Below are positions 8,257 through 41,042 of a stretch of DNA of 64,000 nucleotides, piece by piece. The notes beneath the pieces are model-generated. The model did not search any database. It was not told the origin of the DNA and saw only the letters and a program-made list of their open reading frames with translations. How positions within the stretch are numbered: position 1 is the stretch's first letter; every line of letters starts with the position of its first letter. The stretch comes from Chloroflexota bacterium (lineage in GTDB: Bacteria > Chloroflexota > Anaerolineae > Anaerolineales > UBA4823), in assembly GCA_012516075.1 (NCBI GenBank), contig JAAYXE010000093.1, positions 879 through 64,878 on the forward strand. The letters are read 5' to 3'. The position numbers and the translations under genes were made by a program.

Positions 8257-9264
8257 CTATCTCAGGCTCTGGATAAAGGCGATGATGTCCTGAATTTGCT
8301 CTTCGGTCATCTGATCGGCGATATTTTCAGGCATTACATTCGGGAACCCCTGAACGATCTTTGCGCCCGGTTCGACAATCGACTCATGTAGATAAGCGTC
8401 GTCCACGGTCACCGTTGTGCCGTCTGCCAGAGTCTCCTGCGATCCGTAAACCCCCAGCCAGGTCGGTCCGACCAGCGGAGTACCGTCCACGCTGTGGCAG
8501 GCCAGACAGCCGTACTGCTCGGCCCAGACGCGGCCGCGCTCCACCGGGTCGTCGGAGACGCCGGAGGATTCGGCCACCCAGACTTCAAACTCATCCTGCG
8601 AAAGCACGCGTACATCCGCCAGCATATACGCATGCTGTATACCGCACAGTTCTGCGCAGCGAACCTTGTAGTCTCCCTCGATTGTGGGGGTAATGCGCAG
8701 GTCGCGGATGAATTCTTCCCCACCGGGGAGAGCGTCCTGCTTCACACGGAATTCAGGAACCCAGAAGGAGTGGATCACATCTGTCGAAGACAGGTGCAGG
8801 AGGGCCTGCTTGTTGACCGGCAGAACCAGTTCGGTGGACGCAAAACCATATTCCGGGTATTCAAATCGCCAGGACCACTGGGTGCCGATGACATTGACTT
8901 CCAGCGGCCGGGGCTCCGGTCTGACGGTTTCAGCCAGAGACTGTCCGCCCAGATAAGCAAAATAGAGAACGGTCAGAAGCGGTGCAACCGTCCAGATAAC
9001 TTCCAGACGGCTGTTCCCTTCGATGTGAACCGCATCGGTGTCATCGCCTTTCTTACGCCGAAAAACGATGATGCTGTAAAGCATGAAGACCACGATCAGG
9101 GAAAACAGAAAAGCGATCACCCGAAATTCCAGGCGGAAAAGTGCATCGATTGGCTCAGCCTGAGCGCTGGCACTGACCGGGAGCAGCCGCACCTGGTCCA
9201 GGCCGACGATCAAAAGCGCGGTAACGGCTAAGACCAGCAGGGCTGCGATGACAAGATGTTTCAT
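8257..9264 (-). CDS. ctaC: Cytochrome c oxidase subunit II with C-terminal cytochrome c domain (caa3 type)
   Basis: ATG at 9264 is preceded by AGGAGA. Signal-anchor plus two TMs, HSFWVPEF, CuA site CAELCGIQHAYM and heme c site CLACH. The reading frame stays open upstream (see the next feature). Confidence 0.9.
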   Translation of the reverse strand: MKHLVIAALLVLAVTALLIVGLDQVRLLPVSASAQAEPIDALFRLEFRVIAFLFSLIVVFMLYSIIVFRRKKGDDTDAVHIEGNSRLEVIWTVAPLLTVLYFAYLGGQSLAETVRPEPRPLEVNVIGTQWSWRFEYPEYGFASTELVLPVNKQALLHLSSTDVIHSFWVPEFRVKQDALPGGEEFIRDLRITPTIEGDYKVRCAELCGIQHAYMLADVRVLSQDEFEVWVAESSGVSDDPVERGRVWAEQYGCLACHSVDGTPLVGPTWLGVYGSQETLADGTTVTVDDAYLHESIVEPGAKIVQGFPNVMPENIADQMTEEQIQDIIAFIQSLR

Positions 9265-9756
9265 ATCCGTTCTCCTGTTCTGATTATTTGGCTTTGTTCG
9301 GTCTTGATCGAAAAATGAACGTCCGCCTTTGAACAGCAAACGCTTCTGGCCGGCAGCGGGTTCTTCTATCTGTGATTGCTCGCGCGGCCAGGCGCGGGTC
9401 CACTCATCCAACCAGTCATCAATTTGCGAAGCCGCCAGGGTGCGCCGGTCGTAGATAATCGCTTCCCCTGCGCTCTGCAGCGACAGCAGCACCACACGCA
9501 GCTTTTTCTCCCCCTCGACAAACCGGGCCAGAAACTCATCGCGGTTGAGGGCCTGATCATCGTAGTCCACGATGATCAGGTCCGGGCTTAATCGCTCCAG
9601 AGCTGAGATGGCCTCTTCCAGGTTCGTAACCATCCCCACCACCTCAACCCCGGTTGCGTGGCGTTCTTTCAGCAGGTTGCGTAACCCCTGTCCAAAGAGG
9701 GGGTGGCTGGAGGCAATCACAACGCGGCGAGCTGGTTGTCGGCTGGGGGTGACCAT
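9265..9756 (-). CDS. Receiver (CheY-like) pseudo-domain segment in frame with ctaC, with no stop codon of its own
   Basis: The alternating beta/alpha pattern RRVVIASSHPLFGQGLRNLLKE..VEVVGMV..NLEEAISALERLSPDLIIVDYDD..LRVVLLSL resembles a REC fold. The usual N-terminal DD pair is replaced by SS. ATG at 9756 has GGGAGAGG upstream, and there is no stop before the ctaC ATG. Confidence 0.5.
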
Positions 9757-9932
9757 TCGAATGGAATCCTCTCCCGTTTCAGAATTCACAGCAAGCCAAC
9801 CGGCCCGCGCGGCGGCAGAAATGCCCGCAGTGAACGCCAGGCATGCCCCGCGCTGGAGATAATGTACCAAATACAGTCCAAATTGTCATCCATCATTGCG
9901 ACGCAAAGGAGCGAATCTTGTGTAGCCCGGAC

Positions 9933-16041: not shown

Positions 16042-16148
16042 GCCCGGAGTGCAGCTTGAAATCAGACTGAAACCTTTCATTCAGGCCTGCGTAAACAGAT
16101 ATAGAAAGAAACTTTTGGGTACGGATATTACAGAGAAGGAGGTACAAA

Positions 16149-16340
16149 ATGTCTTCAGGACGCCCATTGCGCCGATCTCGTCGAAATCGCGTTATCGCCG
16201 GCGTGTGCGGGGGCCTGGGAGAATTCTTCGGGATCAGCGCCTTCTGGTTTCGGCTGGCATTCCTGATCGCACTGCTCCCTGGAGGCTTTCCCGGCATCCT
16301 CGGTTACATCTTGTTCTGGATCATCATCCCCAGCGAATAA
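16149..16340 (+). CDS. PspC domain-containing small membrane protein
   Basis: RSRRNRVIAGVCGGLGEFFGISAFWFRLAFLI is the canonical PspC motif. GAAGGAGG RBS. Confidence 0.85.
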   Translation: MSSGRPLRRSRRNRVIAGVCGGLGEFFGISAFWFRLAFLIALLPGGFPGILGYILFWIIIPSE

Positions 16341-16390
16341 CCTGCACACAGCAAGGGAGATCTGCTCTTCCCTCTTGCTGTGTGAATCAA

Positions 16391-16425
16391 AAGGCCTTCA
16401 GGGTTTTCCTGAAGGCCTATTTTTT
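16391..16425. terminator. Bidirectional terminator between the PspC gene and the convergent small ORF
   Basis: AGGCCTTCAGG / CCTGAAGGCCT stem, A-run upstream and T7 downstream. Confidence 0.8.
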
Positions 16426-16468
16426 TATACTCCCTGAATTTTTTTAGCCTGATTTTCGGTGAAATGAA

Positions 16469-16666
16469 TTAGGCACCCTGCTGGGCCGGCTCTACATGCT
16501 GGAGAGATTCTCGCAGGTTCAGCAGAATCTTCTTGCGGTTTTTCAGAAACTCTTTGAAATCGTAGCGATCGGCACGGATGATCTGAGAATGGATTTCCGA
16601 AATCGAACTCTCGAGCACTTCCATTAAAGCCTGCTGCTCTTCGGGTGAGATATCGAGCCTGTACAT
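16469..16666 (-). CDS. Small helical hypothetical protein (65 aa)
   Basis: AAAGGAGA RBS 8 nt before the ATG. Charged amphipathic helical sequence with no recognisable family. Confidence 0.55.
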   Translation of the reverse strand: MYRLDISPEEQQALMEVLESSISEIHSQIIRADRYDFKEFLKNRKKILLNLRESLQHVEPAQQGA

Positions 16667-17206
16667 AGAATCATCTCCTTTTGACCCAACATCTAAATCC
16701 GCCCGGCGGCTGGGCGGCGCACCGAACGGTTAATTTGTATTTGTGTTTAAAATAACAAATGCCGACACTTTATCATACCATGGAAGGGTTAATTGCGATA
16801 GGCTGCAGGAGGTGTACTTTCACTTTTGAAAGCTGCGCACATCTCCTCTTTGGGTAAGGTGTTCCACACATCCCCATAAGAATTCAATCCAGGGGGTGAA
16901 ATTGCGCGCGCCGTAAGCAGCAGCGCTTTTCATTCGCGCAGCAGCCAGGCATCTTGAGCGGCATGCTTCGTATGCTCAGTCGAAAGACGCCCGGCTGCTG
17001 TACGATGGAAGAATCCTGGCTGCACAGTTTACTCCGCTCGCAGACGCAGTCAAAGAAGCCTGGATGTTCGGCCGAAGGAACTTGAGGGAATGGCGAGCGC
17101 GCAAATAATCCACGTCACTCTGCTCAATCCGCATCCGAGATGTGCAGAAACAACCGCGTCCCCTTCCCTGGCTTCATCTCCGATCTCAACCCCCTGAAAG
17201 TCGCAC

Positions 17207-17235
17207 TTGACAACTGGATTGCACTAATCTAGACT
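17207..17235 (+). promoter_or_regulatory. Sigma70-like promoter for the MOSC gene
   Basis: TTGACA (17207-17212), 17-nt spacer, TAGACT (17230-17235), about 90 nt upstream of the ATG at 17326. Confidence 0.6.
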
Positions 17236-26280: not shown

Positions 26281-26409
26281 GAATGATCTTTGGCCAACGT
26301 CAGCAGGCCAGGGGATTAGGTCCAATTTCCATGAGGAGTGACCCGGCAGCGCTGATTGTCATATCCCTCCCATTGGAGTAAGATTGGCCTGCAGTTTGTG
26401 GAAGGACTT

Positions 26410-28680
26410 ATGTTCTCGATCCGGGATTTTTTTCATTTGCCCCAAATAGATGCCTGGGTTGACCGGCTGGGCGCCGGCCAGCCCGGGTTGACCATCATTG
26501 CCGGCCTCGACGCGCGACCCGGCATCACCTTCCCGCCCCAGGGTCTGCTGCCCAGTGGCCGCTCGGCGATCTTCTCCATCCTGATCGAACAGGTGCTCAC
26601 CAGCAGCCCGAAAACCCGCTGTCATCTCCTCGCCCTCGATAAGCAGACGCTGCGAGTCCCCCGTCAGCTTCGCCGGCAGGTACAGTTTTTCAGCACAGAA
26701 GCACCCTTCAGCTACGCCGGCAGGGTGGAGGAAGCGCTCAAAGACCGCCCCACCATGCTGGTCATCGACTGCCTGGATGCAGACAGCCTGCAACCCGCCA
26801 TCCGGGCAGCCCAGGAAGGCCTTTTCGTACTGGCGCAGTTTGACACCGTGCTGTACGGCGCCGAGGTGATCGACCAGCTTTACCCCCTCGGCATGTCTGA
26901 AAGCCAGCGCGCAGTCATCAACTGCATCCTCAGCGTGCAGCGTCTGCAAACGCTGTGCGCGCAGTGCAAAACTGAAGCCCCTCTCAGCCCGGATCAGGCC
27001 GCCCGGCTGCGGTCGCATCCCCTGCTGGCCTCACCCGGTCCGCTGGTAACGGACCTGCTTTCCGGGCTGCTGAAAGACGATCTCCAGGTTTACCAGGAAG
27101 GGAGCTGCCCCTCCTGCCAGGGCACCGGACGCCGCGGCGAGGCGATGGTGTTCGACATCTTTCACCCCAATGCTGGCCCGGGGGATCACAACCTGCCCCT
27201 GGCTGCTTATGTGGGCCGCCTGGCTGAACTGGGCTACCTGTCGCTGGAAGACTTTCTGGACTTCGAAAACCGCCACCGGCGCCGGATGGCGTATACCCTG
27301 CTGTCGCTGGAAAGTGTCCTGGCCGCTAAATCAAATATATACGAGCGCAAACAGGCCGAACTGGAGGCTGCCAACCGTGTGCTGACGCAGCGCACCCGCT
27401 CTCTGATCTCACTGCGTGAACTGGGCCAGGCGATGGTCACCTCTGACGACCTGCAGGATCTGGCCAACCGGGTATGCCGTTTTGCCCTGGACCTGTGCGG
27501 AGCGGACCGGGTCATTGTCTATTATTCACAGTCCATCCACGATGCCGAGGCGCTCGCATCCGGCGGCTGGGGGACAGACCGGGTGCCCCGAAAAGTGGAC
27601 CCGTCCACCACAATGGCACCTGCCGCGCTGCAGCTTCTGGAAAAGGCGGTCGAGCCGGTGGCGTTCAACTTCTGGCCTCCCGGCATCCCGCCCCGCAATC
27701 CCGATGTGGAGGGAGCAGAGCTGCGAGCCGGTCTGCTGGTGCCGCTGATTGCCCAGGAGAAACGTGTGGGGTTCATCCTGGCTCACACCACACGCAAGCC
27801 GGCTTTCCTGCAGGCTGAAATCTCCATGCTGCACACACTGGCCCAACAGGCTGCCCTGGGGATCCAGCGCGCCCGCCTGATCGAAAACCTGCACAATAAA
27901 ATCGCCAGCCTGGAAGCAGCACAAAAGGAACTGGCGCAGAAAGAGCGCATGGAACGGGAGCTGGAGCTGGCGCGCCAGGTGCAGCAGAGTATGCTGCCGC
28001 GTGCCTTTCCGCAGGCTGCCCGCTGCCGCTTCGCGGCGCGTTCTCTACCGGCGCGCTGGGTAGGCGGCGATTTCTACGACGTGATCCCGCTGCAGGCAGG
28101 GAACATCGGCATTGCCATCGCCGACGTCTCCGATAAAGGTCTACCGGCGGCTCTGCTGATGGCGCTCACGCGCAGCCTGCTGCGGGCTGAAGCGCCTCGC
28201 CAATCATCGCCTCAGGCTGTGGTAGAGCGCATCAATCAGCTTTTGATCGAACTGGTCGGTGATTTGAGCATGTTCGTCACCCTGTTCTATGCTGTGGTCG
28301 AGCCGGGAAGCCGCCGTCTGACCTACTGCCGGGCGGGCCATGACTACCCCATGCTGCTGCGGGGCGGCAGCGCCCGGCTGTTAGCCGGAACAGGCACCCC
28401 TCTCGGTATCTGGGGAAAGGAAGAGGAATTTAAACTGTCAGAGGAGACTCTGTTCCTGGAGTCCGGGGACCGGCTGGCGCTGTACTCGGATGGCCTGACC
28501 GATGTTCTCTCAGAACAGGGCGAGATGTTCGACCGCGAGCGCCTGACCTCCCTGCTGGTCGAGGCTTCCAGCCTGCCGCTCAGCGAGATGTGCACCTCGG
28601 TTTTCTCCAGCCTGCTGGCTTTTCAGGGAGACGCCGAACAGCACGACGACATGACCCTGCTGCTCATCGAGATGATCTAG
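26410..28680 (+). CDS. Degenerate GspE/PilB-like ATPase domain, GAF, coiled coil and PP2C (SpoIIE-type) phosphatase
   Basis: The N-terminal ~270 aa align by eye with the GspE C-terminal ATPase domain, including the Cys4 cluster (CAQCK ... CPSCQGTGRRGE). The Walker A is replaced by GLDARPGIT, the Walker B region by VIDCLD and the His box by QEGL. The middle region is GAF-like. The C-terminus carries GGDFYDV, ADVSDKGLPAALLM and HDDMTLL. ATG at 26410 is preferred. Confidence 0.7.
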   Translation: MFSIRDFFHLPQIDAWVDRLGAGQPGLTIIAGLDARPGITFPPQGLLPSGRSAIFSILIEQVLTSSPKTRCHLLALDKQTLRVPRQLRRQVQFFSTEAPFSYAGRVEEALKDRPTMLVIDCLDADSLQPAIRAAQEGLFVLAQFDTVLYGAEVIDQLYPLGMSESQRAVINCILSVQRLQTLCAQCKTEAPLSPDQAARLRSHPLLASPGPLVTDLLSGLLKDDLQVYQEGSCPSCQGTGRRGEAMVFDIFHPNAGPGDHNLPLAAYVGRLAELGYLSLEDFLDFENRHRRRMAYTLLSLESVLAAKSNIYERKQAELEAANRVLTQRTRSLISLRELGQAMVTSDDLQDLANRVCRFALDLCGADRVIVYYSQSIHDAEALASGGWGTDRVPRKVDPSTTMAPAALQLLEKAVEPVAFNFWPPGIPPRNPDVEGAELRAGLLVPLIAQEKRVGFILAHTTRKPAFLQAEISMLHTLAQQAALGIQRARLIENLHNKIASLEAAQKELAQKERMERELELARQVQQSMLPRAFPQAARCRFAARSLPARWVGGDFYDVIPLQAGNIGIAIADVSDKGLPAALLMALTRSLLRAEAPRQSSPQAVVERINQLLIELVGDLSMFVTLFYAVVEPGSRRLTYCRAGHDYPMLLRGGSARLLAGTGTPLGIWGKEEEFKLSEETLFLESGDRLALYSDGLTDVLSEQGEMFDRERLTSLLVEASSLPLSEMCTSVFSSLLAFQGDAEQHDDMTLLLIEMI

Positions 28681-28859: not shown

Positions 28860-29876
28860 TCAGCGCACCAGCACCGGCAGCCAGAGGAAATCGCTGTATG
28901 ATACCGGTCTGCGCACCTGACCCGAATCTTCATCCACCATCAAACTGGAGACATCCACCGCTTCAAAAGCCGAACCAGGTACGCTTTTCAGTTCACGAAG
29001 CATATCGTTATCCCAGCGCTCATCCGGCGCACCGCTGATGTACCAGTTGCTGCCGTTATCCGCCAGGATCAGCCCGTAGGTCTGCATGGCGCGCAGGATC
29101 ACCTGCACCGGGGGCGAGAAACCGGAGATATCGAACGAACGCTTCAGGCGGAAGCGCTGCCCCATCATGGGTACATCCGGGTCCATAATGCTGCTTGCTT
29201 CATGACGCGCCGGCCAGACGTAACCCAACCCGCTGGTTCTGCGTGCCGTAAACCGCAGGGCATGGGTGATCTCACCGCCTGCCACCTCCTCGTAGCGCAC
29301 CAGGCCGGGAAGGATGGGCAGCCCGGCCGCGTCCGCCGAGGTCCAGCCGGCCGGCCGCAGCCGGTTTGACCTCAGGTCAAAGATCGCCCCTGAGCCGGCC
29401 CGCCACCGCCCCCCTCCCATTGGACGGGCATCGAAGAGTTCGTACAGCACGCAGGTATCGCGATTGACGATCAGAATGTGCCGGTCGCCGCTGGAATCTG
29501 GCCCGCCTTCGATTAACGGGTTCTCCGGGATGGGGTACAGGCCCGCATCGCTTTCATCATCGTGTTCAAATTCGACAGGGACGCCCGGCTGGCTTGAATC
29601 GACCACGTTATAGGGGATCCCGATCGGACTACCCTCCCACGTCCCTGAGCCGAAATCCGGATGCAGCCGTCCATCCCGGCCGATGGAAGCCACATAGGCA
29701 TCGGACCGCGGGTGCACCGAGAGGTGGTCTACCCTTGCATTCCAGATATTGTCCGCCGGAAAGAGCGGGCAGCCGGCGATACCGGCTGCCGCGGGTTCTG
29801 CTCTGCCGTCCGTCCACAATCCACCCGATACCATACAGACGAACAGGAGCAGACAGATGACCGCACCTTTTTTCAT
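28860..29876 (-). CDS. Secreted hypothetical protein
   Basis: N-terminal signal peptide (MKKGAVICLLLFVCMVSGG) and a conserved-looking CPLFPADNIWNARVD block. I recognise no catalytic motif. Confidence 0.55.
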   Translation of the reverse strand: MKKGAVICLLLFVCMVSGGLWTDGRAEPAAAGIAGCPLFPADNIWNARVDHLSVHPRSDAYVASIGRDGRLHPDFGSGTWEGSPIGIPYNVVDSSQPGVPVEFEHDDESDAGLYPIPENPLIEGGPDSSGDRHILIVNRDTCVLYELFDARPMGGGRWRAGSGAIFDLRSNRLRPAGWTSADAAGLPILPGLVRYEEVAGGEITHALRFTARRTSGLGYVWPARHEASSIMDPDVPMMGQRFRLKRSFDISGFSPPVQVILRAMQTYGLILADNGSNWYISGAPDERWDNDMLRELKSVPGSAFEAVDVSSLMVDEDSGQVRRPVSYSDFLWLPVLVR

Positions 29877-30134
29877 GAGATACCTCGAGTTTTTAATAAA
29901 ATCGAAATTGTGACCACGAAAAACCTGCTATACTATATCAAATTCTCACCATTCTCATAGCATAAAAACCACCTTCGTACATCCTCCCCCTGTACGGGAA
30001 GGCGCTTGTCGAGGATCGACAGCGAAATATCCACCCCTTTTTTCGCAGTACAGCCTGCGCTGGGTTGCATTGAGTGCTCTGGCGCTCTCAGCCGGGTTGA
30101 TATTAAAAACCGCTTCACGCGGCCCTGGAGGCAG

Positions 30135-31253
30135 ATGAACGTGACACAACCGACGCAAACAGATCAATGGTTGAATATTGAGCTCGAAACCAAACCCGAT
30201 TTTGAGATGGCAATGAAGCGCATTTATGCCTGGTTTGAGCAGGAGATTATTGACCGTCCCCCGGTGCGCTTTACACGCCACAATGCGGAATATGAAGAAG
30301 CCTCACATGATTGGAAACCGGAGTGGAAAGAGCTCAAAGACCGCTGGTTCGATGTCGAATACAATCTCGAGCGCTTCCTGAAGGAGCTGGAAAGCAAACG
30401 CTTCCTGGGCGAGACCTTCCCGGTCTTCTGGCCCAACCTGGGCCCTAACTTCTTCTCCGCCTGCTACGGTGTCCCCCAGGTGTTTGGCGAGGTAACCTCC
30501 TGGGCCGAGCCCGATCTGGAAGCTTATGGTGAACCGCGCCGCTTCGATTTCGAGCACGAGTTCATGCGCAAGATGGTGGAGTTCACCCAGGCAGCGCTGG
30601 AAATCTGTGATGGTAAATTTATCGTGGGCTACACCGACCTGCACGGCGGGCTGGACTGGCTCATGGCCCAGCGCGGTTCTGAGCGCCTGTGCATGGATCT
30701 GTACGAATATCCCGATGACGTCAAGCGCTACCTGGACGTCGTAATTGAGGATTTCTTAAAGGTCTACGACTATTTTCACGATATGCTCCGGTCACACGGG
30801 CAGCCCTCTGTGACCTGGATGAACATCCCATCCTTTGGGAAACTGCATATCCCCAGCGCCGACTTCGCCACAATGATTTCGAAGCGCCATTTCGATGAGT
30901 TCGTCTACCCGACGCTGGAGAAAGAATGCCTGCACATGACCCACAACATCTTCCACGTGGACGGGAAGGGAGTGGCGCGTCACCTGGACCGCATCCTGGA
31001 GCTGCCCAACCTGCAGGCCATCCAGTGGGTGCAGGGTGTCGGAGACGACTGGCCCATTATGCAGTGGGTGCCGCTGATCCAGCGCATCCAGGCCGCTGGC
31101 AAGTCAGTTGTTGTGGATATGGACCTGAAAGACCTGGACGCATTTATGGAAGCAGTGAAACCCGAGGGCATCCTGCTCTGCCTGCCGTCTGAAAACGAGG
31201 AAGAGGAACTGGAAGTCTTAAAGCGCCTGGAGAAGTGGACCGGGAAGAACTGA
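30135..31253 (+). CDS. Hypothetical protein, possibly uroporphyrinogen-decarboxylase (URO-D)-like fold
   Basis: ATG at 30135 with a GGAG RBS. The N-terminal AMKRIYAWFEQEIIDRPPVRF resembles the URO-D/MtaA-family N-terminus. This assignment is weak and unverified. Confidence 0.35.
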   Translation: MNVTQPTQTDQWLNIELETKPDFEMAMKRIYAWFEQEIIDRPPVRFTRHNAEYEEASHDWKPEWKELKDRWFDVEYNLERFLKELESKRFLGETFPVFWPNLGPNFFSACYGVPQVFGEVTSWAEPDLEAYGEPRRFDFEHEFMRKMVEFTQAALEICDGKFIVGYTDLHGGLDWLMAQRGSERLCMDLYEYPDDVKRYLDVVIEDFLKVYDYFHDMLRSHGQPSVTWMNIPSFGKLHIPSADFATMISKRHFDEFVYPTLEKECLHMTHNIFHVDGKGVARHLDRILELPNLQAIQWVQGVGDDWPIMQWVPLIQRIQAAGKSVVVDMDLKDLDAFMEAVKPEGILLCLPSENEEEELEVLKRLEKWTGKN

Positions 31254-32957: not shown

Positions 32958-32997
32958 AGCAATGGGATGGCCCGGCATACCGGGTCATCCCATTGCT
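32958..32997 (-). terminator. Strong hairpin downstream of the giant ORF (terminator-like, no clear U-tract)
   Basis: AGCAATGGGATG(G)CCCGG cata CCGGG(T)CATCCCATTGCT, about 60 nt after the stop at 33055. Confidence 0.5.
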
Positions 32998-33054: not shown

Positions 33055-36000
33055 CTAACCGGCAGTTCTGTGCTTCGCCGGCTTCAAGATAGACCTCATA
33101 ACCGCCCGGTGGTGTTTCCCCGAGTTTGCCGCCGGCGCTCGCAGCAGCTGCGTCTCCGGGATCGAGGACGAGATCTCCAGCTTGTGGTAGGCCGGCCGGA
33201 TGAAGAAGATGTCTTCGCCAATGCTGGCGAGGATCTCCTCCAGCACGCCGGCATTCACCAGGCTGGGCCCGAAGAGACCCAGCGGGCCGTAGATGTGACA
33301 CGGAGCCGATGAATAGAGCAGCTGTCCGTTGACGTAGAGCTCGTAAGCGGGGAAGCCGTCATGCCGGCTGTCGGAATCGATGTAGCAGCGCACCATTCCG
33401 GAAAGCCCCATGTTCTCCAGCCGTACCTTCAGGTCGGCATCGATGCCGGGAGCGAAGTTCTCGAAGGTCCAGTGTTCCGCCGGGAGCGTGGCGTTGATGC
33501 GGAACCTAACGGTGAGCGTCGATGCGGTGGACCCTTCGAACTTCACCTCGATGTTCGGTGGAACCGCGGGAAGGGTGTTCTCGGTAAAAGGAACGCTTCC
33601 TGGCAGCAGGGTATACGCCCAGGGCTGGAACCCGGACGAACAGGCGGGTACAGGGCTCTGGTTCGCATCCAGGTCTTCGCTGTTGTACTCACGCGTCGGG
33701 CCAAATTCTGCGAGGGAAAGCAGTCCACCCGGGAAGGGGATGATGGCATCCTCGGGATGCGGGCCGCGCGCGGGGTCCATGGCCACTTTTACGATCGCCT
33801 GAGCCCGGTGGCTGCCGCTGTTATACGAAAAGCCCCGGTTATCTCCGCCGATCGAATACTTCGCCATATCGTCAATAAACGGGAGCATCGCAGGATTGAC
33901 GACACTGAAAACACCCTTCAATGCGTCAACCACCGGCGGTGGAATGGCGACGACCTCAGAAGGGATAAAGAGACGCAGTTTGATCTCCAGATTCGGAAAG
34001 ATCGAGGACTGTCCCGGCAGGATGTCATCGAGGTCTACGGGGGATGAGCCATTTCCGTTCGAGACCGGGGCGCCCATCGCGCCCGTCCCGGCCTGATCGG
34101 TCACCGGGATGGTGCCGCCGTTCGTATTCTCCTTGACCTCATCCAGGTATTCCACCGTGGCGCCCTGTTCGGTGAGCGTGTTGGGCGGGTCGGCGATGTT
34201 GCTGCTCATCGCTGCCCCGACCATCGATGCGACCTGCTGTCCGAGCGATACGGCTGCATTCAGCGCGTTTGCAGCCGCATCGCCGGCCAGGTTGCCGGAC
34301 AGCTGGGCAGTATTGTTGGCCAGTGCGGCCAGACTACCCAGGATGGCTGTAAGCTGAGATGTCTTGGACATGTCGGTAAACATGCTCCCATTCTGGATCG
34401 CTTCAAGGGCCGAATTCAATGAAGTCGGCATGGGGTACTGCGTCGGTGCAATCTGGTTCAACACGCTGACCGGCACCGTCGGCGTCAGGCCTTCAGGCAG
34501 GGGCTGGGCGTAGTCCTGGTTGACATTGACCGGCAGAATTTGCGGGGCAAGATTGGGGATCGGTGAGTCCTGCCAGTTGAAGAAGCGGCGTACGTTGATG
34601 TACTCGGAGGCATTCGACAGCCCGAGGATGGCTTCGGCAAATACGCCGGAAGACGGCAGAAATACCGTTCTCCAGTGATGGCGCTTGCGGATCTCGGTCT
34701 CGTAATCGCGCAGACCCTCGACGTAATCGTTAATCAAACCGCTGATATCATCTTCGCGCGGTCTGGGAAAGTCGAAAGTCCAGTCAATTGTGCCTTCCGC
34801 GCCATCGAGCACCGCACCGTGCGCGGTGTAGTTAATCTGGAGCGTGTTGTTATCTCCCATCACAGCGGTTCCGGTGATCGCCACTGGATTGGTGAACTGC
34901 CGGCCGTTGATCACCTTGATCAGATCGATGGTCCCCTCCACTGCGCGCGCCTTCTTGCCGCCGGCCTGCTCGTCAATGTACAGCGTGATGTTGGCCGTGG
35001 AATAGTTGTTCCCCTTTCCATGCAGAACCGGCTGTCCCCACAGGGTGTACTTACCAGCATTCCTTCCTTTCCGGACAACCTTCTGCTTGATCCCGTTACC
35101 GGTCAGGGCGTTATCAAAATCAAACAGCGGCGCCCGGACTGCACTGAAGAAGTTCTGACCGAGCCTGCGCTGCAGGTCTTCCGGGTCCTCCTTCAGCTTG
35201 AAGATCAACAGATTCTCGGTCAATCCCAGCGGGTTGGGATCAATCAGGGCGCTCAGCGCCAGGGTTTCCGTCGTTCCGAAAATTCCCAGGTGCTCGATGA
35301 TGTCGATTATCTGCTCCTTTTCCACATTCGCCAGCAGGTACTTGGTGTATCCGTACTTGTAGAAGTTGAAATGCGACTCGATTTCTTCGATGACATCGGC
35401 CGGGTTGATGTCGGAGATCGTTGCCAGCTGGGTGTTGATGTGAGCCGTGACGTCGCTGATCTCTTCATCGACCTCGTTCTTCAACTGCCCGTATGTGTAC
35501 GACCGGTTGATGGTCTGCAGCACCACCTGGGTGTTGGCGTTCCGGTCTTCGAGGGTGTACTCGATATCGATCCTCAGGTCGACGGATGCGCTGGTGTTCA
35601 GGATCGAGAACAGGTTGTTGTCGACATCTTCTTTGAGTGCCTCCCGGTTGCTGCCCAGGCCCAGTTCATTGTCGTCGCGGTTGGTATCCGTCACCTTGGG
35701 GGTCTTATTCTCGTCAGACAGGTAGGCCTTCATCGTCTGTTTGAGTTCCGATGTAAAGTCGGACTTCAGGCTGGCCCGGATGCCCTCATCGATCTCGAAC
35801 GAATCGACACCGCCGAACTCGGCCTTATCCAGCACTGCCGTGTCCAGGATATCGTAGCTGATATACGTGCTGCTGCCGGACATCTTGAAGTTCAGGCTGT
35901 CATCCAGATCGAAGCCGGTGATCGCCAGGGTCACTTCAGGATTTGAATCAGTCAGCTTCACGCGGACATTTTCGGAGTACGAGCGCGTGCGGGTGATCTT

Positions 36001-37482
36001 CACCCGGGTGATCCTGACGTCGCCGGAGGCGTCAAAGGCCTCATTTTGCGGGTTGAAGTCCTTCACAACCTGGTCGAACTCGACGAAGCGGCCCGGCATG
36101 ACGCGCTTGATCGCCCGGCCGAAGATATACCAGTAGTCTTTGATCAGATCGATATTGAAGGTGATCGGGCCAAAGGGCAGGAACAGCACCGGATAGAGCC
36201 TTTCCACCGTGGTATCGGTCCGGTAGCTGTGCAGCACTTCGTAGTACTGGATCGTGAGGGCGTGGCTGTGGTTGTAGTTGGTCACAACGCGGGTCTGAGC
36301 GCGCTGCCTTCCCCGCTGCTCGTCTTCGACAATCACGGTGGACATGACCGAGCGCACGTTGGAGGCGTTCTGGACGGTGGAATCCGAGATGTTCTGGACC
36401 AGTTCACCAGCGACCGTGCGTTCACCGCTGGTCTCCGACTGGAGCCGGCCCTGCACCGTCCCGTTGGAATACACCAGACTGCCGCCAATCGAATTGGCAG
36501 CCGAGGCCAGCGCGCTGCCGGCGCCCCGAACGGGCAGGCCAATTAGAGCCGTCAGATCAGCCGCGAGCGATCCACCGCCGGATGCGCCTGCTCCAGCGCC
36601 GCTCACCAGGCCTGCCCCCGTCGTACGCGTGGTGGCATCGACGTCGGTTGAGCCGTAGAGGTGTTCCCGGGCCGTGGTCTGCACGACCTCATTCAGCGCT
36701 CGCACCTGGGTAAATGTCGCCTGCAGTTCTTCGGATACCCCGGTATCCTCATCGCGAGAGCTGCGCTGCCGGCGAAACCAGTCCAGCACTGCGATCTGGC
36801 GCTGCTCTCCGGGCGCCAGCGCCAGGCTGTGGATAATCTCCCCCAGGTTGGTGCCGGCGTTGATCCATCTTTGATGGAAGGAAGCCAGGTAGCCCAGGTA
36901 AAACTTGAACTCCGAGCGGTAGAAGATGTTGATCAGCTCTTCCGCCGGGTCAGGCTCGTCTTTGTCCGAAAAATACGTCAGTTCGTAATCGCTGAGACGG
37001 TAATCCTTCTCCTTTACGTAGTTGCTGAAGCGTACCTGGGTATGGGTGCTGCCGATCAGCTTCGGGATCAACGCCGGAGGAGCGGATGGCTTCTCGTAAA
37101 ACTCCCCGCGGACTGCTTCCAGAATGATCTCCTGTGCCTCCTGATACGGTGGTAAAGCTTCAAGCTGGCTGAGCGTTTGCACGCCGAAGACAGTTTCAAG
37201 CTGGCCGGCAGCGGCTTCGTCGACACTGATCAGGTAGATGATGTCTAATTCGTCCAGCCTGTTGAGGTTATCGGGGGTCAGAGCCTCCTCTTCGATGTAG
37301 TGCTCAAGCCCAGCATTTTCCACATTACCCTGTCGGAAAGCAGCCATGGAATATTCAGCATGCCGGCAGGGCGCAAACTCCGCCATGTCTCGAATGGTGA
37401 AAATTCCAAGCTCATTAAGGGCCTGGATTTTCTCCAGCGTATTGACGGACGGTAATTGAGTGATCGAGTAATACGGTTTCAT
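33055..37482 (-). CDS. Giant orphan protein (1475 aa), function unknown
   Basis: Single uninterrupted ORF. ATG at 37482 with AGGGAG RBS. No signal peptide or TM segment seen. Two HhH-like motifs at the N-terminus and two Gly/Ala/Ser-rich low-complexity tracts. Conserved-looking core VVTNYNHSHALTIQYYEVL. The C-terminal domain carries IGGDNRGFSYNSGSHR and SRHDGFPAYELYVNG. GC is visibly lower than in neighbouring genes. Confidence 0.8.
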   Translation of the reverse strand: MKPYYSITQLPSVNTLEKIQALNELGIFTIRDMAEFAPCRHAEYSMAAFRQGNVENAGLEHYIEEEALTPDNLNRLDELDIIYLISVDEAAAGQLETVFGVQTLSQLEALPPYQEAQEIILEAVRGEFYEKPSAPPALIPKLIGSTHTQVRFSNYVKEKDYRLSDYELTYFSDKDEPDPAEELINIFYRSEFKFYLGYLASFHQRWINAGTNLGEIIHSLALAPGEQRQIAVLDWFRRQRSSRDEDTGVSEELQATFTQVRALNEVVQTTAREHLYGSTDVDATTRTTGAGLVSGAGAGASGGGSLAADLTALIGLPVRGAGSALASAANSIGGSLVYSNGTVQGRLQSETSGERTVAGELVQNISDSTVQNASNVRSVMSTVIVEDEQRGRQRAQTRVVTNYNHSHALTIQYYEVLHSYRTDTTVERLYPVLFLPFGPITFNIDLIKDYWYIFGRAIKRVMPGRFVEFDQVVKDFNPQNEAFDASGDVRITRVKITRTRSYSENVRVKLTDSNPEVTLAITGFDLDDSLNFKMSGSSTYISYDILDTAVLDKAEFGGVDSFEIDEGIRASLKSDFTSELKQTMKAYLSDENKTPKVTDTNRDDNELGLGSNREALKEDVDNNLFSILNTSASVDLRIDIEYTLEDRNANTQVVLQTINRSYTYGQLKNEVDEEISDVTAHINTQLATISDINPADVIEEIESHFNFYKYGYTKYLLANVEKEQIIDIIEHLGIFGTTETLALSALIDPNPLGLTENLLIFKLKEDPEDLQRRLGQNFFSAVRAPLFDFDNALTGNGIKQKVVRKGRNAGKYTLWGQPVLHGKGNNYSTANITLYIDEQAGGKKARAVEGTIDLIKVINGRQFTNPVAITGTAVMGDNNTLQINYTAHGAVLDGAEGTIDWTFDFPRPREDDISGLINDYVEGLRDYETEIRKRHHWRTVFLPSSGVFAEAILGLSNASEYINVRRFFNWQDSPIPNLAPQILPVNVNQDYAQPLPEGLTPTVPVSVLNQIAPTQYPMPTSLNSALEAIQNGSMFTDMSKTSQLTAILGSLAALANNTAQLSGNLAGDAAANALNAAVSLGQQVASMVGAAMSSNIADPPNTLTEQGATVEYLDEVKENTNGGTIPVTDQAGTGAMGAPVSNGNGSSPVDLDDILPGQSSIFPNLEIKLRLFIPSEVVAIPPPVVDALKGVFSVVNPAMLPFIDDMAKYSIGGDNRGFSYNSGSHRAQAIVKVAMDPARGPHPEDAIIPFPGGLLSLAEFGPTREYNSEDLDANQSPVPACSSGFQPWAYTLLPGSVPFTENTLPAVPPNIEVKFEGSTASTLTVRFRINATLPAEHWTFENFAPGIDADLKVRLENMGLSGMVRCYIDSDSRHDGFPAYELYVNGQLLYSSAPCHIYGPLGLFGPSLVNAGVLEEILASIGEDIFFIRPAYHKLEISSSIPETQLLRAPAANSGKHHRAVMRSILKPAKHRTAG

Positions 37483-37714
37483 TCGGTACTCCCTGGAAGG
37501 AACCTTCCTCTGATTTGTTCGCCCCCGCAGTGGACTGCACATCCTGATGGTGTGGTTGAAAGCCGGTCGGTCAGTGAACAGGCAGTGCCCGGGTGGATTT
37601 ACCCGGACTCATTTATCGCTGCGCTGCAAATAAACTTGATGCGTGAATTCACTGGAACTGGCGAATTAATAAGATAAATCGGACCGATTAACATGCTAAT
37701 ATTATGACAACGGA

Positions 37715-37745
37715 CTGTCACGCCGGCGTGACAGGGATGTGACAG
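37715..37745. promoter_or_regulatory. 20-bp perfect palindrome CTGTCACGCCGGCGTGACAG plus a third GTGACAG half-site at the STAND gene start
   Basis: Read directly: the palindrome spans 37715-37734 and GTGACAG recurs at 37739-37745, overlapping the GTG start. The related motifs GGACTGCAC (37530-37538) and GGACTGTCAC (37712-37721) lie in the same divergent spacer. Confidence 0.45.
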
Positions 37746-39604
37746 AGGGGTGGAAAAATTTGGACTCCGTGCGAATATTCCTGTTTGGCTCGCCTCGCAT
37801 CGAACATCAGGGCAAACCGGTCAGTGTCGAACGCCGCAAAGCGTTGTTCCTGGTGGCGTACCTGGCGATGGCGGAGCAGAGGCAGAGCCGTGAGGCGCTC
37901 ACCAGCCTCTTCTGGCCCGAACTCGACCATGTGCACGCGCGCTCTGCGCTGCGGAGTACGCTGCATTCGCTCACCAGAGCGGTCCCCCTGCCCTGGATTG
38001 ACACCGATGCGGTTTCCGTAGCGTTGAAACGGGATATGGTCTGGGTGGACGTCGACGCCTTTATCGGACTTCTGGTTCAGCGCGGCGCCCACAGCCATGC
38101 CCGCAGCACCGTGTGTGCAGAATGCGTGAAACTCAACCAGCAGGCGATTGAACTGTACCAGGCTGATTTTCTGGCCGGATATAACCCATCCTACAGCGGA
38201 GAATTCGATAACTGGCAGCGCACACAGCGGCAGTGGCTGCGCTGGGAGTTCATGGATATCCAGCGCCAGATGTCTGAATACTACGGCGGTAAGGGAGAAT
38301 ATGATCTGGCGATCCGCTATGCGCAGCAGTGGCTCTCTATGGATCCACTGGATGAGAATGCTCACCGCCAGCTCATGCGCCTGCATGCTGCCAATGGCCA
38401 GCGGACCTATGCACTGCGGCAGTTTGAGCAGTGCGTGAAAATCCTGGATGAGGAACTCGCGACCCCTCCCGATGCAGAGACCAGGCTCCTCTACGAATCC
38501 ATCCAGAACCAGCCGGGGGCTGCGAAATTCAAATTTAATACGGCCGAGCAGCCCGCTGCCGTCAGCATTCTGCCGCCTCTGCCTCCCCTGATTACAGGCC
38601 GCAATAAAGAACTGGAAGAGATCAAACGGCGCCTGGGCATTGGCTCCGTCGAGCTGCGCGCCGTCACGGTTATTCAGGGCTGGCCGGGTGTTGGAAAAAG
38701 CACGCTGCTGGCAAAGCTCGCCCACGATCCTGAGGTTGCGGGCCAGTTTCCCGATGGAATCTTCTGGGCTTCGCTGGGTGAATCCCCGGACATCTATGGT
38801 GAGATCTCCGCCTGGGCCGATGCACTCCTCCCTGGTGGTCCGGGCCGGATCCAGAACCCGGATGAACTGAGAGCCCAGCTTACGGCGGTGCTGCGCGACC
38901 GGCGTTCTCTCCTGCTGCTGGATGACGTCTGGCAGATTGAGCACGTGCAGCCGTTCCGTGTGGGCGGGCAGCACTGTGCGCTCGTCATCACCAGCCGGCT
39001 GAACGACGTCTCCATCGAACTCGCCCCCACCGCAGGCGACATCTACCGGCTGCCAGTGCTGTCCGAGGAGGCCGGGCTCGACCTGCTGGGGAAGCTCGCC
39101 CCGCAAATGCTGCAGAAAGACCCCCGGGCAGCGCGTGAACTGGTCCACGACCTGGAAGGCCTGCCCCTGGCCATCCACGTAGCCGGTCGTCTGCTGCAGA
39201 ACGAAGCGCGCCTGGGATGGGGCCTGCGGGAGCTGCTGGCGGAGCTGCGCAGCGGTGCAGCTCTGCTCAACGCGCCTGCACCCAGCGACATGCACGCTGC
39301 CCGGCAGGCTGCCTCGCCCACGGTGGCAGCGCTGTTAAGACGCAGCACCGATCTGCTGGATGAGGAAACCCGCAGGAAATTCGCCTGCCTGGGGCTGTTC
39401 GTCCCAAAACCGGCCACATTCGACCTGCAGGCAATGGCAGTAGCATGGGGGGTTGATGACCCCCGTCCTGCTGCACGCCTGCTGGTCAATCGCGGGCTGC
39501 TCGAGCCGGTAAGTGGCGGCCGTTTTCAGATGCATGCGCTGCTGGTCATGCATGCCCGCTCTCTGCTGGATCAAATGAGCGATGGCGACACTCGCACCTC
39601 CTGA
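37739..39604 (+). CDS. SARP-type winged-helix/BTAD transcriptional activator domain fused to NB-ARC (STAND) NTPase
   Basis: N-terminal OmpR/SARP-like wHTH (VRIFLFGSPRIEHQGKPV..RRKALFLVAYL). BTAD region (YQADFLAG.., DENAHRQLMRLHAANGQRTYALRQFEQC). P-loop GWPGVGKSTLLAKLA and LLLLDDVW. A TTG start near 37760 is an alternative. Confidence 0.85.
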   Translation: MTEGWKNLDSVRIFLFGSPRIEHQGKPVSVERRKALFLVAYLAMAEQRQSREALTSLFWPELDHVHARSALRSTLHSLTRAVPLPWIDTDAVSVALKRDMVWVDVDAFIGLLVQRGAHSHARSTVCAECVKLNQQAIELYQADFLAGYNPSYSGEFDNWQRTQRQWLRWEFMDIQRQMSEYYGGKGEYDLAIRYAQQWLSMDPLDENAHRQLMRLHAANGQRTYALRQFEQCVKILDEELATPPDAETRLLYESIQNQPGAAKFKFNTAEQPAAVSILPPLPPLITGRNKELEEIKRRLGIGSVELRAVTVIQGWPGVGKSTLLAKLAHDPEVAGQFPDGIFWASLGESPDIYGEISAWADALLPGGPGRIQNPDELRAQLTAVLRDRRSLLLLDDVWQIEHVQPFRVGGQHCALVITSRLNDVSIELAPTAGDIYRLPVLSEEAGLDLLGKLAPQMLQKDPRAARELVHDLEGLPLAIHVAGRLLQNEARLGWGLRELLAELRSGAALLNAPAPSDMHAARQAASPTVAALLRRSTDLLDEETRRKFACLGLFVPKPATFDLQAMAVAWGVDDPRPAARLLVNRGLLEPVSGGRFQMHALLVMHARSLLDQMSDGDTRTS

Positions 39605-41042
39605 ACAGACCTCTGTTCAAATGCAGCTGGCCCGCTATTATCTCCATAAACTGCGTGCAGCTTCCGCAGCCGTCCAGCACGGTCAGGGGAGTGCTGCCTA
39701 TGGCCTCGAGATGCTGAACCAGGAATGGGAGCAAATTGAACACTGGCAGGCATATGCAGCAGAACACAGGAGCCGCGACGCCGGGTGGGCGCGCCTCTGT
39801 ATGGAATTTCCCCTGGCTGGCGTGGAGGTTCTGGCCCTGCGCCAGAGCATAGCCGGGCGGGTGCGCTGGCTGCGTGCCGGTCTGGAAGCCGCAGAGATGC
39901 TCGCAAACGAGCGCGCTGAGCTCGCTATCCTGGATGAACTCAGCGGCGCCTACCAGCTGCTGGGGGATCTCCCTCAGGCGGAAAACTGCGCCACCCGGCT
40001 GCTGGAACGGGCCGAGGCCCTTCAGGACAAGCTGGCCATCGGACGGGCTTATTACCGCCTGGGCAGCCTGGATGAGGAACGCGGCCGTTATCCCCAGGGG
40101 CGCGAAAAAGTCCAGTATGCATTGAACATCTTTCAACAGCAGGGCGCTCAGACCGATGCCGGGCGTGCGCTGCAGCGATTGGGCGCGATTGCCCTTTACA
40201 GCTCAGAATATGAGCAGGCCTACCACCACTTTTCACGTCACCTGGAAATTATGGAAGCCGCAGGCCGTATGAGCGAGGTCTGCACCGGGCTGCTCTCGAT
40301 CGCACAGGCGCTGATGCTGCTCGATGAGATCGATCGTGCTGAGCCTTATATCCGCCGCGCGGTGCAGCTCAGCCGCCTGCTGGGATACCAGCGCCTGCTG
40401 GGCGCCGGTCTGATCATGCTGGGGCAGTGGACTGCCGAGCAGGGTCAAATGGAACAGGAACTGCAGTATTATGCCCAGGGGATCGCCGCAGCCCGCGCTG
40501 CCGGGTCACAGCGCGATGTGATCCACGGTCTCTCGAATTCCGGCCTGGCACGCATGCACAGCGGAGACCTGCAAGGCGCCCTACGGGATCTGCAGGCAGG
40601 GCTGGAACTTGCACGCCAGGCGGGTTTGCCGCGCTTCATCTGCAATCTGCAGCGCAACATCGCCGATGCCTATCTGCTCTCAGGCGAGGCGGAAAAGGCC
40701 CGCCGGCCGCTGGAGGAGGCGCTGCGCCTGGCCGGCGAACAGGGCTCCATTTACCCGGTGATCAAAGCCCTGACCAGTGCAGTTCATTATCTCGTCATCC
40801 AGGAAAGGTTCAGTGAGGCTGCTGTCTGGGCCGGCGCGCTGATCGGCCGCCATGAAGTCGACCAGCGCCTGTTTATACCACTCCTTGCCCGGCTGGAAGC
40901 CGCGCTGGGGAGGGATGTATGCTGGCAGACTTTAAACCGGGGACGCGATATCGACATCCAGGCCAGCCTGCCGCAGATTCTCGAACAGATCGGTCAGCCG
41001 CATTCGGATACCCTGAACGACACCATTCGCCAGACGAAGTAA
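39582..41042 (+). CDS. TPR-repeat protein, apparent C-terminal sensor arm of the AfsR-like STAND, encoded as a separate overlapping ORF
   Basis: It starts 23 nt before the upstream stop in a different frame. There are repeated A..YY..G...A TPR-like units (RAYYRLGSLDEERGRY.., GRALQRLGAIALYSSEYEQA..). Confidence 0.75.
   Translation: MATLAPPEQTSVQMQLARYYLHKLRAASAAVQHGQGSAAYGLEMLNQEWEQIEHWQAYAAEHRSRDAGWARLCMEFPLAGVEVLALRQSIAGRVRWLRAGLEAAEMLANERAELAILDELSGAYQLLGDLPQAENCATRLLERAEALQDKLAIGRAYYRLGSLDEERGRYPQGREKVQYALNIFQQQGAQTDAGRALQRLGAIALYSSEYEQAYHHFSRHLEIMEAAGRMSEVCTGLLSIAQALMLLDEIDRAEPYIRRAVQLSRLLGYQRLLGAGLIMLGQWTAEQGQMEQELQYYAQGIAAARAAGSQRDVIHGLSNSGLARMHSGDLQGALRDLQAGLELARQAGLPRFICNLQRNIADAYLLSGEAEKARRPLEEALRLAGEQGSIYPVIKALTSAVHYLVIQERFSEAAVWAGALIGRHEVDQRLFIPLLARLEAALGRDVCWQTLNRGRDIDIQASLPQILEQIGQPHSDTLNDTIRQTK

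Follow-up and report, generated by a model that had tools for sequence, protein, structure and literature searches.

Nucleases and deaminases are the typical C-terminal cassettes of the known polymorphic toxins. Colicin-type bacteriocins, such as pesticin with its muramidase killing domain and the S-type pyocins, are large, modular proteins without a signal peptide that carry a C-terminal killing module. Phage structural proteins, too, are typically large, with helical segments rich in Gly/Ala and peptidoglycan hydrolases at the C-terminus, and iron-binding HxH tips are found in phage P2 gpV, phi92 gp138 and T4 gp37. As to contractile injection systems (CIS), a folded protein of 1,100-1,600 amino acids (aa) is far larger than typical CIS lumen cargo. 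Here we analyzed a gene of 1475 codons plus stop on the minus strand (33055..37482) of a 64,000-nt stretch of a Chloroflexota metagenome contig, hereafter the window. Its product belongs to a large and undescribed protein family, without a name or a Pfam model, whose members (~1,100-1,600 aa, no signal peptide) appear to be built like polymorphic toxins, with a constant N-terminal chassis and a swappable C-terminal cassette. On balance, the gene is probably a member of a polymorphic-effector family used against other cells, with the tail acting on or in the envelope of the target, and its architecture points to an undescribed kind of microbial weapon.

Results

The first ~1,140 residues of the protein are conserved in Chloroflexota, Proteobacteria, Actinomycetota, Bacteroidota and haloarchaea. 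BLASTP comparison with relatives that are 54-76% identical over residues 1-1140 (P0002-P0018) showed that similarity ends at residues 1132-1153, within a junction (residues 1101-1164; 33991..34182, minus strand) that consists of a conserved P-x-T-x-T-x-x-G-A motif followed by a Gly/Ser/Pro linker. The 115 tails compared fell into 56 sequence clusters, 37 of which are singletons. DUF3238-like tails form the largest cluster (n = 16, query included) and stand on N-termini that are 26-49% identical to the query, and other tail types are found on the majority of the nearest relatives (54-76% identical). Since the DUF3238-like tail is found on distant N-termini and other tails on close relatives, the tails are shuffled with respect to the N-terminal phylogeny. 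The family thus combines a conserved N-terminal region with hypervariable, swapped C-terminal domains, as is expected of a polymorphic toxin.

The tails that could be named comprise, in a first set of members, Peptidase_M74, clostripain (C11), DUF2272, GH25, HH_signal/M15, Amidase_2 and C70, and, in 40 further diverse members, HH_signal (twice), GH25, M23, CHAP, Amidase_2, Amidase_6, C92, DUF4056 and GATase/C26. Precomputed annotation or source names gave OmpA (four times), Beta-lactamase2 and Poly_export. All tail domains whose position was checked lie past the second conserved block of the chassis (block II, see below), and ~18 of ~23 nameable tails are peptidoglycan hydrolases or peptidoglycan-binding modules. 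DUF2272 has been classed with the NlpC/P60-CHAP amidases, including Tse1 (PMC10318531).

Two members are followed, 65-70 bp downstream, by a short open reading frame (ORF): L002:14364-14753 (129 aa, after P0010, Actinopolymorpha) and L094:10364-10819 (151 aa, after P0011). The two products share 40% identity and show homology to the C-terminal ~145 aa of the longer members P0002, P0004, P0006, P0008 and P0012; therefore, the terminal sub-module of that tail type is separate in some genomes and fused in others.

The tail of the window protein is a cassette (residues 1165-1428; 33199..33990, minus strand) that is a distant homologue of DUF3238/BAS0735 and a putative envelope-directed domain. A phmmer search with these residues returned eight proteins (E = 2.5e-9 to 2.5e-5), six of them about 220-250 aa long, and three of the matches (P0122, P0124 and P0126) pass the Pfam cutoff for DUF3238. 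When 16 domains of this kind were combined, the resulting profile (A3) matched PDB entry 3c5p_A (BAS0735, ‘unknown function’) at E = 6.8e-12, with the GDxRxF and HDGFPxYE motifs aligned. The C-terminal domain taken alone reached 11.3 bits against DUF3238 (PF11579; E = 0.3), under the gathering threshold of 21.1 bits. A first-pass annotation, made by a model from the DNA letters, had likened this region to DUF3238, which proved right as distant homology, the query itself remaining sub-threshold. Residues R1170, F1172, G1213, R1216, H1374, F1377 and E1381 are invariant in the cassette family (alignment A3), and the cassette was modeled by AlphaFold2 (AF2) with a predicted template modeling score (pTM) of 0.73. 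Behind it, a basic C-terminal extension (residues 1429-1475; 33058..33198, minus strand) is not present in other DUF3238-like tails and has a predicted local distance difference test (pLDDT) value <50 at domain positions 293-335. The literature search found nothing on DUF3238, BAS0735 or Lsan_1158, and the genomic surroundings of free-standing DUF3238 genes offered no hint of a function.

The anatomy of the chassis was mapped from BLASTP coverage, alignments A1, A2 and A4, a conservation profile and an AF2 model of residues 1-1140 (mean pLDDT 72.9). The chassis begins with an N-terminal helical domain (residues 1-130; 37093..37482, minus strand), modeled as all-helical with pLDDT mostly >90, within which lie two helix-hairpin-helix (HhH)-like motifs, LNELGIFTIRDMAEF at residues 22-36 and VFGVQTLSQLEAL at residues 98-110. 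The family consensus reads ‘ALxxLGIxxxxDLA’ and ‘LxGIxxxxAxxLxxxFGVxTxxxLA’. When 38 family N-termini were compared with Pfam, the commonest matches were of HhH type and all sub-threshold (best E = 4e-4); they include DNA_pol_lambd_f, HHH_5, TfoX_C, RNA_pol_A_CTD, POLH-Rev1_HhH and RAD51D_N, with RecG_wedge and DUF4332 found six times each. The best PDB profile match of the domain, the HhH of DNA pol IV, was not significant (E = 0.11). An HhH-like nature of residues 1-130 is plausible, not proven: the two motifs noticed at first pass gain from the consistent type of the matches and from the confident helical model, and fall short in that every match is sub-threshold.

Conserved block I (residues 135-500; 35983..37080, minus strand) is a β-rich core according to alignments A1, A2 and A4 and the AF2 model, with long strands predicted at residues 147-163, 192-222, 227-244, 384-401 and 409-436. 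The turn between strands 192-222 and 227-244 holds HSLALAPGE (residues 218-226; 36805..36831, minus strand), in which L222, A223, P224, G225 and E226 are invariant. TNYNHSH (residues 401-407; 36262..36282, minus strand), an HxH motif, stands at the turn between strands 384-401 and 409-436. Its residues N402, Y403, N404, H405 and H407 are invariant in 118 sequences, and the ‘conserved-looking core’ NYNHSHALT of the first-pass annotation is indeed the most conserved motif of the family. A Gly/Ala/Ser-rich loop within the block (residues 286-345; 36448..36627, minus strand) has low alignment occupancy and low pLDDT; its length differs across the family, a pair of hydrophobic glycine-zipper-like segments is found there in one subclade only, and the corresponding region of homologues gave weak DUF1269 and DUF3482 matches.

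A variable middle (residues 501-905; 34768..35982, minus strand) follows, with α/β domains modeled confidently (pLDDT ~90); residues ~765-920 form an insertion found in ~30% of members only. Conserved block II (residues 906-1040; 34363..34767, minus strand) contains LPSSGVFAEAILGLSNASE..RRFFNWQDSPIP at residues 942-976 and QNGSMFTDMSK at residues 1030-1040, with the family consensus ‘LPxxGVFAEAILGRSNASE..RFxNWQDSPIP’ and ‘QNGNMFRDMSK’ and the invariant residues G946, F948, E950, A951, N957, E960, R966, W970, P976 and F1035. The last part before the junction is an Ala/Gly/Ser-rich segment (residues 1041-1100; 34183..34362, minus strand), of which residues 1041-1083 were modeled as one long helix.

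AF2 confidence was low at the most conserved stretches, residues 237-391 and 955-1096. This fits regions that would need oligomerization or a conformational change to fold, but it could also come from a shallow alignment (55 sequences). Pore-state β-pore-forming toxins (aerolysin, epsilon toxin, Ib, CDTb, PA and lysenin; E = 0.03-0.5, probability <=0.2) are overrepresented in the weak PDB fold list of the chassis model, which may be taken as a hint only. No transmembrane-like segment was found in the query, the top 19-residue Kyte-Doolittle mean being 1.62, in a proline-rich stretch; in agreement with the initial reading of the sequence, neither a signal peptide nor a transmembrane helix was detected. 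An integral-membrane topology was also considered for the family and rejected, since the glycine-zipper hydrophobicity is limited to one subclade and nothing transmembrane-like is seen in the second Ala/Gly region.

The full protein gave no match in Pfam, NCBIfam or PADLOC at E<=1 and none in PHROGs at E<=0.1; sequence searches of the PDB returned noise from single-chain antibody (scFv) linkers only, the A2 and A4 profiles found nothing in the PDB, and residues 135-500 had no PDB match at E<=10. The protein can thus not be placed in a characterized family, as had been noted before. It had also been called an orphan, which it is not. A word-indexed search recovered 132 homologues, and a profile of residues 135-500 run against 1.84 billion representative proteins matched 2,965 clusters (50% identity) at E<=1e-3, of which 1,583 at E<=1e-30. 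Of the full-length matches listed, nearly all are 1,100-1,600 aa long, with the matched block at about the same position. In a scan of 185,579 species (one genome each), 266 species from at least 10 phyla had relatives. The carriers belong to Actinomycetota, Bacteroidota, Chloroflexota, Cyanobacteria, Gemmatimonadota, Planctomycetota, Verrucomicrobiota, Acidobacteriota, Desulfobacterota and Alpha-, Beta- and Gammaproteobacteria, the proteobacterial ones including Legionella, Thiobacillus, Nitrosospira and Roseobacter. PLSDB added 33 plasmids with a relative, among them plasmids of Bacillus tropicus, Streptomyces clavuligerus and Nostoc and Haladaptatus megaplasmids. No description of the family was found in the literature.

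A complete member is also found in an archaeon. The megaplasmid of Haladaptatus sp. YSMS36 encodes, at L095:7248-11321, a full-length protein of 1357 aa annotated as ‘DUF2272 domain-containing protein’. The N-terminal domain, TNYNHMH and block II are all present in it, and its DUF2272 (NlpC/P60-like) tail has a homologue in the tail of an Anaerolineales member. Two places on a second Haladaptatus plasmid (H7) also match.

To compare the surroundings of the family, the 5,782 ORFs that flank it at 86 loci were clustered; what recurs is limited to shadow ORFs within the gene and to ABC and histidine-kinase families of a generic kind. At individual homologue loci the neighbors are mostly housekeeping or unremarkable genes. 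Genes for Pvc16_N, an AAA ATPase and eCIS_core are found at a distance of 4-10 kb from the homologue of Actinopolymorpha pittospori (L001, L002 and L008, which are one locus), and this was the one species with CIS genes nearby in ~90 loci examined. Linkage to an extracellular CIS (eCIS) was therefore rejected as a family trait, being confined to the Actinopolymorpha copy; an AAA gene adjoining the Flammeovirga copy was likewise dismissed as a CIS sign, as it is a generic AAA. For the window itself, the domain scan covered the ORFs up to 45.8 kb and none beyond, and gave no match for 28860-31253; no CIS-like domain turned up among the ORFs scanned. Genes of conflict type surround the Bacillus tropicus plasmid copy (SIR2, helicase, integrase), HNH_2 and DUF7002 are found near the homologue at L004, and STAND NTPase/HTH-NB-ARC genes flank a Caldilineaceae homologue (L007) and also stand beside the window gene, without recurring across loci. 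In Ekhidna, the family member is directly followed by a gene (L003:14747-16372) whose 541-aa product carries a Colicin_D (tRNase toxin) domain at its C-terminus, which suggests a small toxin island.

The composition of the gene is ordinary for its contig. Its GC content is 0.583, vs 0.611 +/- 0.029 for the 30 other genes of the window (z = -0.93); GC at third codon positions (GC3) is 0.752 vs 0.728 +/- 0.052 (z = +0.46), and the per-codon log-likelihood of its synonymous choices under the window usage lies exactly at the mean (z = 0.00). The GC shortfall is confined to codon positions 1 and 2 and therefore comes from amino-acid composition. The first-pass annotation had described a composition unlike that of the neighbors, hydrogenase genes at 65-68% GC and AT-rich bracketing spacers, none of which held: the Mbh/Mrp-like and later genes at 45-60 kb measure 60-65%, and the spacers, at GC 0.49 and 0.51, are <1 standard deviation from the 15 intergenic regions of the window (0.548 +/- 0.062). 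The horizontal acquisition that it had derived from these points thus fails by its own yardstick, as GC, GC3 and codon usage of the gene are indistinguishable from those of the other genes of the contig, and with them the compositional case for transfer falls. The window has no tRNA or Rfam match, no convincing repeats flank the gene, and no integrase turned up among the scanned ORFs. That the family is scattered over many phyla and also archaea does imply horizontal transfer long ago; no compositional trace of it is seen in this copy.

The ORF runs without interruption from an ATG at 37482 to 33055. An alternative in-frame ATG at 37542 would give 1495 aa (20 more residues). The start at 37482 is supported by a Shine-Dalgarno-like GGGAG (37489..37493, minus strand), read from the sequence, with a 6-nt spacer before the ATG, by the independent call of an identical 1475-aa protein (P0001; Logan assembly of SRR27151694, same contig) and by the homologue alignments, which begin at residue 5-6 in BLASTP. 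The gene is the largest of the window, as first described (the next-longest ORF has 1174 aa), and the peptides quoted at first pass were all found in their places. At 58 nt past the stop lies a near-perfect stem-loop (32958..32997, minus strand; inverted repeat I2) with 18-nt arms and a 4-nt loop, whose RNA fold has -36.3 kcal/mol (z = -4.8). As no U-tract follows it, it is not a canonical intrinsic terminator, and it is possibly a 3' end or stabilizer element instead.

A gene for a GGDEF protein lies directly downstream, and upstream is a divergent BTAD-NB-ARC/TPR regulator. Its BTAD-NB-ARC ORF (37739-39604, plus strand) and TPR ORF (39582-41042, plus strand) overlap by 23 nt and look, from their sequences, like one SARP/AfsR-type STAND regulator in two frames, divided either truly or by a frameshift. 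Over the first 46 kb, within which an Mbh/Mrp-like cluster begins, the scanned ORFs with Pfam matches are ordinary chromosomal genes, among them those for cytochrome oxidase, fructose-bisphosphatase (FBPase) and P-type ATPases. The FBPase is 100% identical to a protein named ‘MAG: Chloroflexi bacterium’, so that the host is an uncultivated Chloroflexota bacterium. Some of the ORFs have unusual features. ORF 26356-28680 (plus strand) has an unusual architecture, with a partial T2SSE-like ATPase region (E = 1.4e-6), then GAF, then a SpoIIE/PP2C phosphatase. ORF 1473-3311 (minus strand, 612 aa) joins COX15/CtaA (heme A synthase) to UbiA/CtaB (heme O synthase) and adjoins SURF1, SCO1 and cox genes. 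The COX2-cytochrome c ORF at 8257-9870 (minus strand, TTG start) gave a weak N-terminal match to a response-regulator receiver (E = 5.7e-5, below the Pfam cutoff), which may reflect an over-extended start or a real fusion. Finally, 16042-17235 is a 1.2-kb segment (GC 0.506) without an ORF of at least 150 aa, the longest low-GC gap of the first half of the window, and has neither an Rfam nor a tRNA match.

Discussion

Our results support the notion that this gene encodes a polymorphic effector. The conserved chassis, the sharp junction, the shuffled and mostly cell-wall-directed tails, the lack of a signal peptide and the archaeal members all fit this reading better than that of a housekeeping wall enzyme. 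Haloarchaea are not known to make murein. The NlpC/P60-type DUF2272 tail of a haloarchaeon, Haladaptatus, is thus among the reasons why we infer a use against other cells. In the mechanism that we propose, the chassis would export the tail from the producer, deliver it to its substrate, or do both, and the tail would act on or in the envelope of the target cell. Block I might form an oligomer, speculatively a metal-tipped β-needle or a β-pore-like assembly; we suspect this because invariant motifs are placed at the turns of very long predicted β-hairpins and because the conserved stretches were modeled with low confidence. Export might occur by lysis-dependent release as for colicins, through a CIS encoded elsewhere or by autonomous insertion of the β-hairpin core. 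A bolder proposal, which we consider rather unlikely, is that the 1,140-residue chassis is itself an autonomous delivery device, a self-assembling needle or pore that carries the C-terminal enzyme across an envelope without a dedicated secretion system and by which bacteria of more than 10 phyla and haloarchaea attack bacterial walls.

Several observations weigh against the effector reading. No conserved neighbor, immunity gene or chaperone was found among the 86 loci, and the 449-bp spacer downstream of the window gene holds no supported ORF (at most 68 aa inside, with one 116-aa ORF overlapping the 3' end of the gene). The ORFs behind P0010 and P0011 were rejected as immunity genes because of their homology to the final ~145 aa of longer members. 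No known trafficking domain or linked secretion system was detected with Pfam, NCBIfam or PADLOC, the scanned window ORFs with matches being housekeeping genes. A tail could be named in only ~23 of 160 scanned members, and DUF3238 is a domain without an assigned activity. Foldseek returned nothing at E<0.01 for the AF2 model of the chassis against the PDB and BFVD, nor for that of the tail against the PDB, where 3C5P was not recovered either. Toxicity, export and oligomerization of the members are predictions, drawn from sequences and models.

The absence of a signal peptide, of an immunity gene and of secretion genes, at loci that stand alone, would also suit the main rival explanation, self-directed lysis or programmed death (abortive infection or developmental autolysis). 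The HhH domain would then sense a nucleic-acid cue, block I would breach the membrane of the producer and the tail would degrade its own wall, so that a single polypeptide would act as holin plus endolysin. The hydrophobic glycine-zipper pair inside block I of one subclade, the pore-state toxins in the weak fold list and the conflict-type genes at some loci (the Bacillus tropicus plasmid, L004 and the STAND NTPases at the window gene and L007) are in line with it. However, the glycine-zipper hydrophobicity is missing in the query and most members, the β-pore fold matches all have E>=0.02 and a probability <=0.2, the STAND genes are not recurrent and no neighbor is conserved, PADLOC gave no match and a murein-free haloarchaeon has a full member bearing an amidase-type tail. 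We therefore hold self-lysis to be unlikely. The eCIS genes near the Actinopolymorpha pittospori homologue raise another possibility, that the protein is a cargo or spike-like part of a CIS (eCIS, type VI secretion system or cytoplasmic CIS) encoded elsewhere, comparable to orphan evolved-VgrG/effector genes. By analogy, the HxH at a predicted β-hairpin tip recalls the iron-binding tips of phage spikes, and a slight enrichment of archaeal peptidoglycan hydrolases without signal peptides has been reported for genomes that have a sheath gene (P = 0.059; PMC12352652). Set against this are the restriction of that linkage to one species, the window ORFs scanned up to 45.8 kb, which are free of CIS-like domains, the lack of any match to VgrG, gp5, PAAR or Afp proteins in fold or sequence, and a length of 1,100-1,600 aa, too large in comparison with typical lumen cargo. 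Such a role appears quite improbable.

A phage or prophage structural protein, whether a tail-associated lysin, a tape-measure or an internal virion protein, could explain the large size, the Gly/Ala-rich helices and the C-terminal peptidoglycan hydrolases, and one contig of 2.9 million viral contigs in IMG/VR does carry a distant relative. It was the only one; a tblastn search found no relative in any of 50,697 phage genomes, there is no PHROG match and no BFVD fold match, and neither the scanned window ORFs nor the homologue loci contain phage genes, so that this origin is effectively refuted. The orphan and transfer reading of the first-pass annotation would make the gene a lineage-specific orphan recently gained by horizontal transfer and marked by an aberrant composition. 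A raw GC ~3 points under the mean of the window genes, the phyletic patchiness of the family and its plasmid-borne members speak for this, but the z-scores for GC, GC3 and codon usage are ordinary and the deficit lies in amino-acid composition. The spacers are ordinary as well, the tRNA, Rfam, repeat and integrase searches described above gave no sign of an insertion, and a family of thousands of members is no orphan. A recent import is thus very unlikely.

If the polymorphic-effector reading is true, ~3,000 clusters of ‘hypothetical’ proteins of 1,100-1,600 aa can be read as polymorphic, mostly cell-wall-degrading effectors, and their tails make a ready catalogue of candidate lytic enzymes. 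The family would also offer a way into the function of DUF3238/BAS0735 as a putative envelope-directed effector domain. It poses an export problem, that of signal-less peptidoglycan hydrolases leaving monoderm, diderm and archaeal cells; the same question has been raised for archaeal peptidoglycan hydrolases (PMC12352652). Cultured carriers are at hand in Actinopolymorpha pittospori, Pseudonocardia sulfidoxydans, Thiobacillus denitrificans, Nitrosospira multiformis, Legionella gresilensis, Streptomyces clavuligerus and Haladaptatus spp.

Compared with DUF3238 (PF11579) and Bacillus anthracis BAS0735, the cassette of the window protein has the same GDxRxF and HDGFPxYE(L/F)Y motifs. It differs by inserts (helices at positions 42-66 and a loop at positions 94-115 of the domain) and by being fused to a chassis of 1,140 aa, whereas most of the recovered DUF3238 members are free-standing and ~220 aa long. 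With the colicin-type bacteriocins the protein shares the lack of a signal peptide; however, it resembles them neither in sequence nor in fold, its gene has no immunity or lysis gene alongside, and the family occurs in monoderm lineages and archaea, where a Ton/Tol-dependent import would presumably be meaningless. The lysin-carrying spikes (T4 gp5, P2 gpV, phi92 gp138 and evolved VgrGs) offer a possible analogy through an elongated β-rich core joined to a peptidoglycan hydrolase and an invariant HxH at a β-hairpin turn. In contrast to them, no fold match was obtained (none at E<0.01 with Foldseek against the PDB and BFVD, and no spike protein among the listed matches), the family is not found in phage genomes, and its hydrolase is C-terminal and polymorphic.

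A last comparison is with the polymorphic toxin systems (Rhs/YD, CdiA, LXG/T7SS, MuF and TANFOR-type). The family would work like such a system, yet it fails two of the usual features of membership, having neither an adjacent immunity gene nor linkage to a secretion system: no cognate immunity gene stands directly downstream, and CIS genes lie near a homologue in a single species. Moreover, no RHS/YD, hemagglutinin, LXG/WXG, PAAR, MuF or TANFOR domain was detected in the query, the nameable cassettes are dominated by cell-wall enzymes and the family extends to archaea. In its architecture it nevertheless resembles these systems, by a long conserved N-terminal part with a hypervariable C-terminal cassette, by an abrupt loss of similarity at a fixed junction behind a conserved motif, by the presence of the same cassette on distant N-termini and of different cassettes on close relatives, and by cassettes that include known antibacterial enzyme families.

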